Below, piece after piece: positions 4,902-50,058 of a DNA stretch of 64,000 bases (position 1 is its first letter; the number at the start of each line of letters is the position of its first letter). Origin of the DNA: Gammaproteobacteria bacterium (lineage in GTDB: Bacteria; Pseudomonadota; Gammaproteobacteria; SZUA-152); assembly GCA_032250735.1 (NCBI GenBank), contig JAVVEP010000005.1, forward strand, positions 91,602 to 155,601, written 5' to 3'. The notes beneath the pieces were generated by a model. That model was given only the letters and a program-made list of their open reading frames with translations. It was not told the origin of the DNA and made no database searches. Made by a program: the position numbers and the translations under genes.

Positions 4902-6153
4902 AGTGGCAGGCCCCGTGAGAGGCGGGGCAGCGTGCCGGCCATGCCCATGGAGTGACGCGCGATGCTGTGTTTGATCGGCGGCAGGATGTCGGCGGCGATG
5001 AGGCCAAGATTGCGCAGCAGCGCCAGCGGGGGCAGACGGTTGGAAAAGGTCTGCACCAGGATATTGGTAAAGCCGATCACCTGTTGGTGGTCGCGCTGAC
5101 GCCAGCGGGCATAGCTCTCCAGGGTCTCAAGGCTGCCGGGATCCTGGCCGGCGCGGCGCGCATCGACGAGGGTCTGCGCCAGGCTGGCGACGTCGCGCAG
5201 TCCCAGATTGAAACCCTGCCCGGCGATGGGGTGCAGGGTATGCGCGGCATTGCCGATCAGCGCCAGACGGGGGCGCACCTGTTCCTGCGCCTGGATCAAT
5301 TGCAGGGGATAGCTGTGGCGTTTACCCACCGTCAGGAGGCGTCCCAGGCGCCGGCCGAAACAGGCCTGTAGCGCGGCGAGAAAATCGGCATCACCCGCCT
5401 GTAACAGCCGTTCGGCATCCTCCGGGGCGCGGGTCCAGACCAGCGCGCAGCGGTTGTCCGGCATGGGTAGCAGGGCCAGCGGCCCGTGACGGGTGAAGCG
5501 TTCGTAGGCGATGTGCCGGTGCGGTTTTTCGGGCGTGATGTTGGCGATGATGGCGGTCTGCCGGTAGTCGCGCTCGGCGGTGCGGATCGCCAGCAGCTGG
5601 CGCACCTGTGAACTGCCACCATCGGCGGCGACCACCAGTGTGCTGCTGAGCGACTGCGTGCCGCCATCGACGTGGGTGACGGTTATCGTCGCCGTGGCGC
5701 TATCGAGGTCCAGTCCGGTCACGGTGGCCGGGCTGATCAGGGTTAGATTGCTGCACTGCTGGAGGGCGCCCAGCAGCTGTGCGCCGAGTTGCCGCGCGGT
5801 GACCACATAGCCCAGGGCCTCGACGCCTTCCTGCGCGGCGTGTAGCCGGGTGAAGCCAAAGCGGCTCTGATCCGAGACGTGGATGTGATCGATGGCGGTG
5901 GTGTGCGGGGCGATCCCCGCCCACAGCCCCATGCCCTCAAAGATGCGTCGGGCGCCAAACGACAGGGCAATGGCGCGGTCATCGTAACTGGGCGGGGCGG
6001 TGTCGCCCTGTCCCTGGGCCGGCAGGGGTGCCGCCTCCACCAGCGCGATGCGTAACGGCTGCCCGGCCAGGCTGAGCGCAAGGCTGGCGCCCACCATGCC
6101 GCCGCCGATAATGAGCAGATCGTAATCGGCGTTGTTGTGCAGGGAAGGGCTCA
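4898..6153 (-). CDS. ubiH: 2-octaprenyl-6-methoxyphenol hydroxylase, UbiH-like FAD monooxygenase
   Basis: Carries the DYDLLIIGGGMVG motif. The tracked ORF extends to 6280 with an Arg/Gly-rich N-terminus overlapping pepP, so the real start is probably a GTG overlapping the pepP stop (GTGA) near 6153. Confidence 0.65.
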
Positions 6154-7494
6154 CGCCGGGTGTGCGGCCATCAGTCGTTCGATGTCGGCGATGGCCTTGG
6201 GCGCGTCCTTGCTCAGCACCTCGCAGCCCTCCCGGGTGACCAGGATGTCGTCCTCGATACGAATGCCGATGCCCTGCCATTTTTTGGCGACGCTGCGCCT
6301 GCCGACCTTGCAGCCGGGGGCGATGTACAGACCGGGCTCGACGGTCAGCACCATGCCCGGTTCCAGTTCACGCCAGGCCTCGCCCACCTTGTAATCGCCG
6401 ACATCGTGCACGTCGAGCCCCAGCCAGTGGCCGGTGCGATGCATGTAGAAGGTGCGATAGGCCTGTTCCTTGATCAGGCTGCGCAGATTGCCCTTGAGCA
6501 GGCCGAGTGAGAGCAGCCCCCGGGTCAGCACGCGCACCGCCGCCTCGTGCGGGTCGTTCCAGTGGTTGCCGGGCCGCACCTTGTCGATGGCCGCCAGCTG
6601 GGCCTCGAGCACGACCTCGTAAACGGCCCGCTGTTCGGGGCTGAAGCGGCCGTTGACGGGGAAGGTGCGGGTGATGTCGGCGGCATAGAGCTGGTTTTCC
6701 GCACCGGCATCGATGAGCAGCAGGTCGCCATCTTTCAGCTCGGCACTGTTTTCCGTGTAGTGCAGGATGCAGCCGTTCTCTCCGCCGCCGACGATGGGAG
6801 TATAGGCATTGACCATATTGTGTTGTTTGAAGTGGTGCTGAAATTCCGCCTCGATCTCGTATTCCCGTTTGCCGGGGCGACATTGCTGCATGGCACGCAC
6901 ATGGGCCTGGGCGGAGACGATCGCCGCCTTGCGCATGGCGGCGATCTCGGCGGGACTCTTATACAGGCGCATATCGTGCAGCAGATGATCGAGGTCCACG
7001 AATTCCTGCGGCGGATGCACGCCGGCGCGGGACTGTTCCCGCAACTGGTTGACCCAGCCGGTGACGTGCTGATCAAACTGGGTGTCGCGGCCCATGGCGT
7101 AATAGACCCGCTCACTGCTTTCCAGCAGACCGGGCAGGATGTCGTCGATATCGGTGATGGGGAAGGCGTCGTCGGCGCCATAGAATTCCATCGCGCCTTC
7201 CAGGCCGGCGCGGCGGCCGTGCCAGGTCTCCATCTGCGGGTCGCGTTCGCGGCAGAACAGGATCACTTCACCGTGTTTGCGTTTGGGGATCAGCACCAGC
7301 ACCGCCTCGGGTTCATTGAAGCCGGAGAGGTAGTAGAAATCGCTGTCCTGTCGATAGGGATATTCGGCATCGCGGTTGCGCATGCGATTGGGTGCGGCGG
7401 GCAGGATAGCCACCGAGGCCTTGCCCATCATCTGCATCAGGCGTTTGCGGCGGCGGGCGAATTCGGTACGTGTGATATGCGGTTTGGGCGTCAT
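6151..7494 (-). CDS. pepP: Xaa-Pro aminopeptidase PepP (M24B family)
   Basis: Shows the AMP_N plus M24 pita-bread fold, including the metal-ligand motifs HGTGHWLGLDVHD and EPG. Start chosen at the internal MTPKPHI; the upstream extension lies in MITE DNA. Confidence 0.85.
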   Translation of the reverse strand: MTPKPHITRTEFARRRKRLMQMMGKASVAILPAAPNRMRNRDAEYPYRQDSDFYYLSGFNEPEAVLVLIPKRKHGEVILFCRERDPQMETWHGRRAGLEGAMEFYGADDAFPITDIDDILPGLLESSERVYYAMGRDTQFDQHVTGWVNQLREQSRAGVHPPQEFVDLDHLLHDMRLYKSPAEIAAMRKAAIVSAQAHVRAMQQCRPGKREYEIEAEFQHHFKQHNMVNAYTPIVGGGENGCILHYTENSAELKDGDLLLIDAGAENQLYAADITRTFPVNGRFSPEQRAVYEVVLEAQLAAIDKVRPGNHWNDPHEAAVRVLTRGLLSLGLLKGNLRSLIKEQAYRTFYMHRTGHWLGLDVHDVGDYKVGEAWRELEPGMVLTVEPGLYIAPGCKVGRRSVAKKWQGIGIRIEDDILVTREGCEVLSKDAPKAIADIERLMAAHPA

Positions 7495-7546
7495 GCCGCG
7501 ATTGTAACGAAAAAGGTCGATTAAAGGGCAAGTGGTATTTTCAGTG

Positions 7547-7731
7547 CTGAGAGCCTGTGAAAAAATCGCCGGCCTACTGCGGGCACCGCTTTGCGGCTGC
7601 AACTGCGTTGCGCTACGCGAAAACGGCGGTCATTTGGTTCACCAAACTCCCTTGTTTTCGCATAGCGCGCCTTGTTTCGCTCGCAAATCGACGCCCTCGC
7701 TACGGCCGTCGAATTTTTCACAGGCTCTGAG
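7547..7731. mobile_element. MITE-like element family X, 185 bp with 22-bp terminal inverted repeats (ctgagagcctgtgaaaaaatcg)
   Basis: Left and right ends are near-perfect inverted repeats. A collapsed 60-bp copy is at 45318..45377. Confidence 0.6.
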
Positions 7732-7761
7732 AAAAGCTTCCGTCTCAGCGCGCAACGGGGT

Positions 7762-7978
7762 AGGGCGCAATAACCGAAGGGCATTGCGCCGCATGAAACA
7801 TTTCCCAAGGCAGAATCGTTTTGATTGACCGATGGATAATGCCTCGCAGAGCAATCATTTACAGTTGCCTTGGTGTCATTCGTTGGCTGGGGTATGTATC
7901 GGCGTCCATGAAGGCATTTACGTTGTTTTTCCGTGGCGACTGACCATACGGCGCAATGCCCTTCGGTTATTGCGCCCT
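7762..7978. mobile_element. MITE-like element family Y, 217 bp with 30-bp hairpin-forming terminal inverted repeats (agggcgcaataaccgaagggcattgcgccg)
   Basis: Terminal inverted repeats are at 7762-7791 and 7949-7978. A second 217-bp copy in inverted internal orientation is at 35437..35653. Confidence 0.65.
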
Positions 7979-8008
7979 ACGCACTGCCATAGGGCGATGG
8001 CTTAGCAG

Positions 8009-8557
8009 TCAACCCTGCAGCGGTTGCAGCTCCTCATTGATCAGCAGCACGCCGACGCGCAGGTATTCGACCAGCTCGGCATAGGCGTGTTCATCCTCCT
8101 CGCTGCCTTCCAGGTCGTACGAGGTGCCGGCGCGGGCGATCTCCAGCATGTCCTTGGCGATCTCGCGGGCGTCTTCGGGCAGGGGGGCGAAGTCTTTGAC
8201 GCCGCCGAGGCTGAGACCGATCAGGTAACCCTGGCACCAGTCACCCAGGGCATTCACCCGCTGGTCGAGGCTGTCGTTGTCATCGGGCAGCAGCATCTGG
8301 AATTCACAGTTGGGGTCGTTGAGCTGGCGTCGGGTGACCTCGTGACTGGTCCTGAAGACCTCGTTGGCCTCGGCGGCCAGCAGGTCGCCTGCGGGCTGAT
8401 TCGGCCACAGGGCCTGCTGCCAGACCGCGGGCTCGGCGCTGGTGTTGGCGCACAGCAGGCCGCAGAGTGTGCCGTGCACCTCGCTGGGCATGACCTCGGT
8501 ATTGAGCTTGCTGAGGGCCAGGGCGATGGCCTGGTAGTCGGGCAGTTCTCGTTGCAT
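8009..8557 (-). CDS. ygfB: UPF0149 family protein YgfB
   Basis: Conserved synteny with pepP-ubiH. Start set at the internal ATG (MQRELPDYQ) preceded by an aagga RBS; the upstream extension has no support. Confidence 0.7.
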   Translation of the reverse strand: MQRELPDYQAIALALSKLNTEVMPSEVHGTLCGLLCANTSAEPAVWQQALWPNQPAGDLLAAEANEVFRTSHEVTRRQLNDPNCEFQMLLPDDNDSLDQRVNALGDWCQGYLIGLSLGGVKDFAPLPEDAREIAKDMLEIARAGTSYDLEGSEEDEHAYAELVEYLRVGVLLINEELQPLQG

Positions 8558-9408: not shown

Positions 9409-9597
9409 GGCGCCGCCTGCGGTGTTCGATACTGTATCGGATTTTTCTTGGCCTATGCTTAACCCTGTTGGGGGCATTACATCGGTGTTGTGTGCATGTC
9501 CGTTCATCGGAAAGCCTGATATGCCGATTGTTGTTCCCACCTCAATCGCTCCGGTCCCAAGAGTGACGATACGGCCGGCACAGGCGGGGGGCGCCTC
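9409..9597 (+). ncRNA. ssrS: Putative 6S RNA (ssrS)
   Basis: Non-coding gap of about 400 nt between zapA and ygfA, which is the conserved 6S locus. The 5' end GGCGCCGCCUGCGGUG can pair with the 3' end CACAGGCGGGGGGCGCC, enclosing about 187 nt, followed by a T-run. Confidence 0.5.
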
Positions 9598-44658: not shown

Positions 44659-45237
44659 CTAGTGACGCTGTCGCCCGCTGCCCTTGATTGGCGTGGCCTG
44701 GGTGACCTGCTGTAGTCGATTTTCCGCCTGGCTGCTGCCCGTGTGTTCCCATAGTTCATAGGCGGTCAAGGCGTCATACAAAGGCTGTTCATCGCCCAGC
44801 TGTCTTATGCTCTGCAATACATCCATCGCCGGCACAAAGCTCTCGTACAGGTGTTCATACAGATGGCCCTGATGGTGTGGCGTATTGTGATGGAGCTGAT
44901 AATAGGCACCGATGCCGAGATCGATAAAGTAGTTGCTGTTGACCAGTCGCGCGCGCGCCTGTTGCGGAAAAAAGCCGGCGTACAAAAGACAGATATCACC
45001 GACCTCGCGCAGCTTTTCGATCTGCCGGTGACCGGAGCTGCGAATCCCGTTGAGATAATCCAGGGCCAGAATGCGAGCCGCTATTTCTGGTTTGCACAAG
45101 AATCGCTGTAGCAGGAAAACCAGATAGCTCTGAACCTCTTCCCCCAGATGACGATGGGACCTGTGTTCCGCTTCGCACACCAGTTCATGCCAGTGAGCGG
45201 TGGATGTGGGTTGTAGCTCGATGTCACGCATACGCAC
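44659..45237 (-). CDS. Hypothetical protein
   Basis: 192-aa ORF with normal codon usage and no recognised motif. Confidence 0.4.
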   Translation of the reverse strand: MRMRDIELQPTSTAHWHELVCEAEHRSHRHLGEEVQSYLVFLLQRFLCKPEIAARILALDYLNGIRSSGHRQIEKLREVGDICLLYAGFFPQQARARLVNSNYFIDLGIGAYYQLHHNTPHHQGHLYEHLYESFVPAMDVLQSIRQLGDEQPLYDALTAYELWEHTGSSQAENRLQQVTQATPIKGSGRQRH

Positions 45238-45317
45238 CTCCTTACATTCAGGTTATCGGCGCGTAGCAGGCAGGGCTTTAGCGTGGTTAATGGTCAGTGA
45301 AAGGAGGAGGGAAGAGT

Positions 45318-45377
45318 GAGAGCCTGTGAAAAAATCGCCGACCTGCTACGGCCGTCGATTTTTTCACAGGCTCTGAG
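45318..45377. repeat. Collapsed MITE-X copy (two terminal inverted repeats joined, 60 bp palindrome)
   Basis: gagagcctgtgaaaaaatcg...cgattttttcacaggctctgag with only 20 bp of interior sequence. Confidence 0.6.
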
Positions 45378-45415
45378 CGGTCGGAGGGTGGAGAAATTTT
45401 TCCAGCCTTTGCCTG

Positions 45416-45997
45416 CTAGCGAATCGTACCCTCGGTCCCGGCCAGCAGGTTGCGGATATTGGAACGGTGTCGCCACAACAGCATGACACTGATCAGCGCT
45501 GAGACGGCGATGAACTCGGGCTGTGGTGCAAGCAGCCACATATACAGGGGCGCGAGCGTAGCGGCGACGATCGCCGACAGCGATGAAATGTTGAATAGTT
45601 TGGCCATCACCAGCCAGCTAGCCAGCACCGCCAGACCGACCGGCCAGGCCAGGGCGATCAACACACCGCCGGCGGTGGCGACGCCCTTGCCGCCGCGAAA
45701 ACCAAAAAAGACGGGATACAGGTGGCCGAGGAAGGCGGCCAGCGCGACCAGCGCCAGGATCAGTGGCGGAGCGGACAGCAGTTGCGCGACCAGCACCGGG
45801 ACCACGCCCTTGAGGGCGTCCCCCGCCAGGGTGATAGCCGCGGCCTTCTTGCCGCCCACGCGTAATACGTTGGTGGCGCCGGGGTTGCGCGAGCCCTGGG
45901 TGCGCGGATCGGGCAGGCCCATCAGCCGGCAGCTGATGATGGCGGCGGAGAGGGAGCCGGCGAGGTAGGCGGCGAAGATCAGGAGGTAGTCGAGCAT
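45416..45997 (-). CDS. plsY: Glycerol-3-phosphate acyltransferase PlsY
   Basis: Multi-transmembrane protein with the PlsY motif (SGNPGATNVLR). Divergent from folB, as in E. coli ygiH-folB. Confidence 0.85.
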   Translation of the reverse strand: MLDYLLIFAAYLAGSLSAAIISCRLMGLPDPRTQGSRNPGATNVLRVGGKKAAAITLAGDALKGVVPVLVAQLLSAPPLILALVALAAFLGHLYPVFFGFRGGKGVATAGGVLIALAWPVGLAVLASWLVMAKLFNISSLSAIVAATLAPLYMWLLAPQPEFIAVSALISVMLLWRHRSNIRNLLAGTEGTIR

Positions 45998-46170
45998 GCC
46001 GGCATTATCGCTCACTTTATTGGGTAAGTCGCTGTGCGTTTATGAGAATGCGTCATGAGGAAAAAGGCGCTTGCTGGTCTGGCTTTAGGCAACGCGGTAT
46101 AGTTCGCCACAATTGCGATATTGCATCCAGTCACTGTTTCACCTCTGCCGGAGTCCGCTGAGCCATTATT

Positions 46171-48298: not shown

Positions 48299-48413
48299 GG
48301 ATGAGCTGGTTATGGCAGAGAGAGTGTGGACGAAACCATAAAATGACCGCTCCATGAATTCACCGGTTTTTCTACCGCCGCGTTAGAAGTCAAAGACTGA
48401 TCATACTTGCAGG

Positions 48414-48489
48414 GGATTGGGGTCATTGCCTGACTTTGCACATCCACAATTCAGCATTTCAGAGGAGTGTAAAGTCAAGCAATGACCCC
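48414..48489. repeat. About 75-bp imperfect palindromic element (ggggtcattgcctgactttgcaca...tgtaaagtcaagcaatgacccc) with tandem tail repeats
   Basis: Its reverse complement recurs at 49879-49945, on the other side of the histidine kinase gene. Confidence 0.6.
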
Positions 48490-48610
48490 CTGTCGATGAT
48501 GACCCCCTGTCGATGCTACTCTACCCGAATCCTGACCCTAAATTGCTTATGAGGTGCCTACCCAAAAAGGAATTTAAGAAAAATAAAAACCAGGCCGATA
48601 CCCACATGGA

Positions 48611-49878: not shown

Positions 49879-50058
49879 GGGGTCACTTGACTTTACACTC
49901 CTCTGAAATACTGAATTGTGGATGTGTAAAGTCAAGCAATGACCCCAGACCCTGCAGACCCTCCATTTCAGATGAGTGCAAAGTCAAGCAATGACCCCAG
50001 ACCCTCCAAGCAATGACCCCAGACCCTCCAAAGTCAAGCAATGACCCCAGACCCCTTG
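49879..50058. repeat. Palindromic element copy plus four tandem aagtcaagcaatgaccccagaccctcc-type repeats
   Basis: Direct repeats were read off the sequence; they are not separated by unique spacers. Confidence 0.6.

Follow-up and report, generated by a model that had tools for sequence, protein, structure and literature searches.

Two intergenic palindromes in a gammaproteobacterial genome as probable full-length and internally deleted copies of a MITE family with IS1182-type ends

The Correia elements of Neisseria and the ERIC/IRU elements of enterobacteria are palindromic MITE-like repeats of 100-160 bp with inverted ends and a very short A/T-containing duplication, which is TA in the case of Correia. 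Both come as full-length copies and as shorter size classes with internal deletions, are transcribed together with their neighbours and form long RNA hairpins; to our knowledge, no autonomous partner of Correia is known. REPs are characterized by a GTAG head, the lack of a duplication and a dependence on a tyrosine (Y1) RAYT transposase. In the IS1182 family, ISPse1 is 1653 bp long and has 16-bp inverted repeats (PMC3281130), and Methanosarcina acetivorans is on record as having IS1182-derived MITEs of 160-169 bp (PMC3852290). Insertions of IS1272 tend to lie directly behind genes, in palindromes or terminators (PMC5678879, PMC4923244); this IS replaces a hairpin, enters in either orientation and leaves no target duplication (PMC4923244, PMC5678879). 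A dispersed small repeat with an intrinsic-terminator-like fold is described in a review (PMC10969869). A large MITE survey and a MITE review make no mention of IS1182.

Here we analyse two intergenic palindromes in a 64,000-nucleotide stretch of a gammaproteobacterial genome (the window, to which all positions refer unless another locus is named). Both sequences are very probably copies of one non-autonomous MITE family, termed here family X, whose ends are those of a subgroup of the IS1182 family, and the shorter of the two is an internally deleted form. Each copy starts with GAGCC, ends with GGCTC and has TGA on each side. Family X is thus an ordinary kind of element, a MITE, from a family for which we found no description in the literature: neither the end sequence GAGCCTGTGAAAAA nor an account of such a family was retrieved by the literature search or from Rfam, and its partner insertion sequence (IS) may already be named in ISfinder.

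The full-length copy occupies 7551-7727 on the plus strand (177 bp, GAG...CTC, A arm first). It is bordered by TGA duplications at 7548-7550, read directly from the sequence, and at 7728-7730, read from the sequence and the family alignment (both on the plus strand). Repeat searches place the IRL-like terminal inverted repeat of the A arm, GAGCCTGTGAAAAAATCGCCGGCC, at 7551-7574 (plus strand) and the IRR-like repeat of the B arm, GAGCCTGTGAAAAATTCGACGGCC, at 7704-7727 (minus strand), and extend the paired arms to 7547-7574 and 7704-7731, i.e. 28 nt that are 89% complementary. The preliminary description of a 185-bp element with 22-bp inverted repeats was therefore right about the element itself and inexact about its limits, as the element proper measures 177 bp and its repeats are of about 28 nt and imperfect. 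The apex of the palindrome, aaaacggcggtcatttggttcaccaaactcccttgttttc (7620-7659, plus strand), is the most conserved internal block of the family in alignments of 18-27 copies. The whole copy forms one hairpin, with -104 kcal/mol and z = -9.9 on the minus strand, and matches the family profile with E = 3.8e-48 (nhmmer), the same search finding only the long and the short copy in the 64-kb window. Its classification as a MITE is borne out by the inverted ends, the 3-bp duplication, the non-coding interior, the occurrence at unrelated loci and the ends that it has in common with transposase-bearing ISs.

The elements are non-coding: no ORF of significance lies inside either copy, and only spurious ORFs overlap the 177-bp and 54-bp elements. 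A small ORF beginning at the conserved ATG of the apex was considered and rejected, as it meets an in-frame TAG after 6 codons in several copies, including that of the window. In the Rfam search of the window at gathering score, the only match is a 6S RNA, and the region 7450-8050 gives no match up to E = 1. The 6S/SsrS RNA gene (RF00013, 76.3 bits) lies at 9411-9594 on the plus strand, downstream of zapA.

That the two loci are related, as had been proposed, is confirmed by a scan with the 20-mer GAGAGCCTGTGAAAAAATCG at up to 3 mismatches, which finds four sites in the window (7549 plus, 7710 minus, 45318 plus and 45356 minus) against a chance expectation of ~0.01 matches; none of 100 shuffles reached four. 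Unrelated native terminators or palindromes that are alike by chance would also be expected to be intergenic, as both loci are, and could be terminator-shaped, as the short one is; the agreement of the 20-nt ends within 0-2 mismatches, where 0.01 matches are expected, and the presence of the 177-bp unit in other genera leave this explanation with a negligible probability.

The long copy is located in the spacer between ygfB (8009-8557, minus strand) and pepP (6151-7494, minus strand), 53 nt upstream of the pepP start codon. In four relatives in which pepP directly follows ygfB, this spacer has neither family X nor the neighbouring repeat Y and measures 90-230 bp, versus 514 bp in the window; subtraction of X with one TGA (180 bp) and of Y (221 bp) from the window spacer leaves 113 bp. 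A base-precise empty site for the long copy was not found among the ygfB relatives, which are too diverged in the spacer, the nearest of them at this locus (L123) having 86% YgfB identity. The long copy would put a 177-nt hairpin ending in U6 into ygfB read-through transcripts, just before the pepP promoter. A TACAAT box is observed 6 nt upstream of the pepP ATG (7495-7510) and is conserved in most relatives (L123, L125, L134 and L143); a box so placed would mean a leaderless or nearly leaderless pepP mRNA.

Repeat Y (MITE Y), present at 7760-7980 and 35435-35654, is distinct from family X; it measures 221 bp and has 36-nt inverted ends at 97% (GTAGGGCGCAATAACCGAAGGGCATTGCGCCGCATG). The gap of about 30 bp reported between it and the long element measures 29 nt, so the two lie side by side and neither is within the other, which does not agree with their portrayal as a nested hotspot; in the proposed scenario, a standard 177-bp copy of family X would have landed at 7551-7727 beside the unrelated repeat Y. 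The ends of Y (GTAGGGCGC...) each form a small hairpin with a GTAG head and look REP-like, more so than those of family X. Oriented in opposite directions, its two copies are 84% alike over 128 nt; a direct repeat, GGTGCT, borders the second copy and none the first, and Y is absent from the ygfB-pepP spacer of the relatives. The window contains further repeats, namely a family CAAAGTCAAGCAATGACCCCAGACCC with its inverse in at least 5 copies, including 48411-48495 and 49886-50056, with 67-nt arms at 93% around ~1.4 kb, and, at 32973-33116 between type IV pilin-like genes, a 45-bp unit containing the palindrome AAGGGGTCTGACCCCTT in two identical tandem copies and a nearby third diverged copy (67% identity).

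Outside this genome, AGAGCCTGTGAAAAAWTCG was searched for in 185,579 species-representative genomes and matched 112 DNA stretches in Acidobacteriota, Planctomycetota, NC10, Myxococcota, Beta- and Gammaproteobacteria and others, many of them at contig ends; by a rough estimate, ~35 of the 112 could be chance matches. A TGA or TCA precedes 110 of 132 arms, a signature missing from obvious chance matches such as single arms in AT-rich coding sequence, and TGA stands at both ends in 34 of 46 paired elements. Four matches on viral contigs were dismissed as chance, as all correspond to a single arm in one AT-rich phage gene without TGA or TCA. The modal family length is 177 bp, found in the window copy and 15 other paired copies.

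A family profile built from the full-length copies recognises 34 loci in 13 other genomes, mostly of Xanthomonadales/Nevskiales-type Gammaproteobacteria. The uncultured gammaproteobacterial MAG CAZXGS has 11 of these loci, Rhodanobacteraceae SMAG_U653 has eight, each of two Panacagrimonas species has three, and single loci are found in two further Rhodanobacteraceae MAGs and in Lysobacteraceae, Aquimonas and Polycyclovorans MAGs; two Thermoanaerobaculia MAGs carry a 161-bp variant and two Pseudomonas species carry B-arm fragments. In an alignment of 18 full-length copies, the columns are 88% identical on average, with the ends and the 40-nt apex being most conserved. Two other arrangements were observed in this material. 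At L006 (6666-6976), ~125 bp of foreign sequence interrupt a family-X copy near its apex and bring its length to 311 bp, which is possibly a nested insertion. A Vulgatibacter MAG (L012, L045, L055, L056, L087, L096 and L110) has hairpins of ~56 bp at no fewer than 7 loci, each well preserved at one end (GAGCCTGTGAAAAAATCG) and degenerate at the other (...TTTTTCACGCGCGC), which look like another collapsed lineage of the same superfamily.

Insertion of the element is documented by a clean pair of filled and empty sites behind tesB. The filled site, in a Lysobacteraceae MAG (L103, 6372-6554) and in contig L144, reads GGAC-TGA-[177 bp]-TGA-AAC-ATG after tesB; L144 and L145 are near-identical JGI contigs with the element behind this gene. 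The empty site (L146, 2901-2909), where tesB is 86% identical, reads GGAC-TGA-ACC-ATG. The comparison demonstrates that the element inserted into TGA and duplicated it, the duplicated TGA being the native tesB stop codon located 3 nt before the next start codon. At this site, the 3' end of the upstream gene, which carries an AAGGA Shine-Dalgarno-like motif, was moved by the insertion to a distance of 180 bp from the next start codon, an arrangement that persists in three contigs despite the displaced motif. No empty sites were detected by flank-to-flank BLAST among all fetched loci.

The ends of family X can be attributed to a subgroup of the IS1182 family, since the same ends bound three complete elements of 1655 bp (L076, 5-1659; L080, 770-2424; L090, 400-2054). 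Each of these contains a single ORF of 476-518 aa that scores 333-366 bits on the NCBIfam model NF033551 'IS1182 family transposase' (cut-off 270 bits) and also matches Pfam DUF772 and DDE_Tnp_1_6. The common ends constitute an 18-20-nt terminal inverted repeat GAGCCTGTGAAAAAWTCG, and more transposase fragments adjoin such ends at L050, L009, L072, L094 and L111. An IS1182 transposase gene was found neither in the 64-kb window nor in the fetched gammaproteobacterial loci that carry the MITE, so that mobilisation in trans is presumptive in these hosts; no transposase is present near the end sequence in Rhodanobacter L102 and L026. In the mechanism that we propose, such an IS would provide, in trans, the DDE transposase that binds both ends, and the element would be inserted at 5'-TGA-3', preferably in the context C-TGA-G, with duplication of the TGA and with the IRL-like A arm always placed next to the upstream TGA.

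The orientation of insertion on this target is fixed. When the A arm is read first, the duplication is always TGA and never TCA (18 TGA to 0 TCA for A arms; 0 TGA to 19 TCA for B arms read outward), and in 14 arm clusters, drawn from several phyla, 68 arms are true to their cluster type versus 3 that are not. The complete ISs follow the same rule and read 5'-TGA-IRL-transposase gene-IRR-TGA-3'. An upstream ORF ends exactly at the left TGA in 19 of 30 MITE copies, and in two copies the left flank is TAA, also a stop codon. The case for stop codons as such being the target is weakened by the modest size of the excess: at the same loci, 22 of 55 (40%) unoccupied non-genic CTGAG sites are stop codons as well. 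In view of this background, the association with stop codons is largely a by-product of the target motif and of selection, which do not account for the orientation lock.

A second asymmetry concerns the two strands of the palindrome. The strand running from the B arm to the A arm folds 8-43 kcal/mol better than its complement in all 21 full copies with RNA parameters, and it is the more stable one in 18 of 18 copies with DNA parameters. The consensus on this strand has 59 pairs, in which 95.1% of cells are paired (871 Watson-Crick and 138 G.U cells, with 11 A.C cells); 20 columns are polymorphic between G.U and Watson-Crick and none between A.C and Watson-Crick, the A.C variants being singletons only, and 17 pairs show compensatory changes, a number that no shuffle out of 500 equalled, although the pair and covariation counts are inflated by the shared ancestry of the copies. 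The distribution of variants suggests that those breaking the hairpin of the B-to-A strand do not spread.

These properties bring to mind two explanations other than DDE-type transposition. First, the element could be kept mainly as a portable structured RNA or terminator module of the host, with an RNA-selected hairpin and apex and with transposition being secondary. The extensive and covarying pairing, the conservation of the apex across genera and the fact that both window copies present the stronger-folding strand to the transcripts of their flanking genes are in line with this explanation. In the commonest arrangement, however (19 of the 30 copies), transcription of the neighbouring gene enters through the A arm and the mRNA carries the less stable strand, so that a purely RNA-level explanation fits poorly; furthermore, mobility is evident from the target duplication, the empty site and the transposase-bearing relatives, and there is no matching Rfam family. 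We consider this explanation improbable. Second, strict orientation on an asymmetric target and conservation of a hairpin on one strand (138 G.U versus 11 A.C cells) are hallmarks of single-strand transposition, as would be expected for a REP/REPIN-type palindrome moved by a RAYT (IS200/IS605-like) transposase. Such an origin is highly improbable for elements with true inverted repeats and a 3-bp duplication, given that REPs start with GTAG and lack a duplication, that ends identical to those of family X bound IS1182-family DDE transposase genes, and that no Y1/RAYT gene is seen beside any copy.

For the DDE-type family X, it is conceivable, if rather unlikely, that integration of this IS1182 subgroup and of its MITEs is strand-aware and directed at TGA as a stop codon. 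According to this speculative scheme, the elements would always enter as 5'-TGA-IRL...IRR-TGA-3', and propagation would seem to be limited to variants with the hairpin kept on one particular strand. If this is true, a DDE-type IS either recognises one asymmetric base of the target or passes through a single-stranded or hairpin intermediate, and a possible benefit would be the expression of the transposase by read-through from the gene behind which the IS has landed; in L090, the transposase gene starts 34 nt inside IRL. The copies in the window would in that case belong passively to a family whose targeting rule has gone unrecognised. The orientation lock together with the one-strand hairpin would be of interest for how ISs choose their targets.

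The second copy in the window is a collapsed derivative of 54 bp at 45320-45373 (plus strand), made of ~27 nt from the start of the A arm and ~27 nt from the end of the B arm joined at a GCT microhomology, with TGA duplications at 45317-45319 and 45374-45376 (plus strand, both read from the sequence). Its arms, 45319-45343 and 45350-45374, are 25 nt long, 92% complementary and 6 nt apart, and the hairpin is predicted at -40.8 kcal/mol on the minus strand (z = -7.3) and -38.1 kcal/mol on the plus strand. It had been described as a perfect 60-bp hairpin, whereas it has two mismatches and an element proper of 54 bp. Its derivation from family X by removal of the interior, also claimed earlier, is upheld by lineage-specific bases in common with the long copy and by analogous short forms elsewhere. 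Thus, ACGGCCGTCG is present in both window copies where other genomes have ACGGCGTTCG, and CGCCG[G/A]CC is a second stretch specific to the window lineage that both copies have; these bases indicate that the short copy arose within the window lineage and is not a look-alike. Alignment with the full copies places GCT, the sequence at the junction, in both arms.

The 54-bp copy, an internal-deletion derivative without the top of the palindrome, would most likely have lost it when replication slipped from one short direct repeat (GCT) to another across the hairpin, whether at the present site or in a short ancestor that transposed later. Short forms found elsewhere measure 65, 66, 66, 72, 72, 80 and 94 bp; they retain intact ends as well as TGA duplications, and their junctions fall at microhomologies of 3-6 nt. 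The 66-bp form is present in Panacagrimonas (L010) and Rhodanobacteraceae (L064) and the 72-bp form in L065 and L109, in each case at unrelated loci of different genera, which implies that the short forms either are mobile themselves or are recurrent products of slippage. Arrival of the 54-bp hairpin already short, from a mobile 'mini-MITE' lineage consisting of two ends and ~18 nt, is accordingly a serious possibility, if not the one we would bet on: the identical short architectures with intact ends and duplications point this way, as does the window copy being the 66-bp form less 12 nt flanked by GCT repeats. On the other hand, the short copy carries the bases specific to the window lineage, and recurrent slippage at the same microhomologies could yield identical forms independently. 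We moderately favour a collapse of the short window copy in place. An empty site for this copy was not found, as the relatives of the adjacent 190-aa gene (L120-L122) do not have plsY upstream; homology to them stops ~55 nt before the start codon, and the plsY synteny is not conserved. Seven short-read Logan contigs with the 190-aa gene (L113-L119), representing the host population, all end exactly at the outer edge of the 54-bp hairpin. The palindrome or repeat evidently breaks short-read assemblies, a practical caveat for metagenome-assembled genomes.

The genes on both sides of the short copy, plsY (45416-46015) and the gene for a 190-aa protein (44659-45231; start as in P0001, locus tag RRB22), are on the minus strand, which places the hairpin behind plsY and ahead of the 190-aa gene. 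The preliminary description had this geometry reversed, with the hairpin upstream of plsY and behind a 192-aa gene; in fact, it follows the plsY stop codon (45416) by 39 nt and precedes the start of the other gene (45231), which encodes 190 aa, by 85 nt. A terminator role, named in that description among those that such hairpins can have, is plausible. A pattern scan of 45150-45500 found one terminator-like site where 0.3 are expected, on the minus strand only (the sense of plsY) and inside the short copy: at 45329-45354, the core CGGCC GTAGCA GGTCG forms a stem CGGCC/GGTCG with a 6-nt loop (minus strand 45354..45339), followed by the tail GCGATTTTTT, a pattern to be read with the caveat that the U-tract can pair with the upstream A-tract. 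Pattern scans gave no terminator call in the long copy and no sigma-70-like promoter within or beside either copy. On sequence grounds, the chances that the short copy is the Rho-independent terminator of plsY seem about even. On the minus strand, its stem is G+C-rich and runs into U6, and it would shield the promoter of the 190-aa gene as well as ending plsY.

For this genome, the analysis matters little: it accounts for two intergenic palindromes, sets the gene geometry right and predicts a transposon-derived terminator of plsY. More broadly, the work defines a MITE family and an IS1182-type partner common to several bacterial phyla, and the filled and empty tesB sites document the duplication of TGA. 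The closest described system is the IS1182 family (IS1272, ISPse1 and ISMac2) with its MITEs, as the ends of family X are those of 1655-bp, NF033551-positive ISs. In contrast to IS1272, the family-X subgroup duplicates its TGA target and is found in one orientation only. By its mode of operation, family X resembles Correia, ERIC or SPRITE-type repeats, to which it is unrelated in sequence; it also differs from Correia and ERIC/IRU in its hosts, in having an identified partner family and in an insertion oriented on TGA. The 54-bp copy looks like the terminator-like small repeat reviewed in PMC10969869 in having a G+C-rich stem followed by T6, although the sequence and the phylum differ, and its terminator shape is a by-product of the A6/T6 tracts inside the transposase-binding ends. 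Finally, family X and REPs/REPINs are alike in being intergenic palindromes with strand- and orientation-specific behaviour, and family X is set apart from them by its GAGCC ends, its 3-bp duplication and its DDE-type partner.
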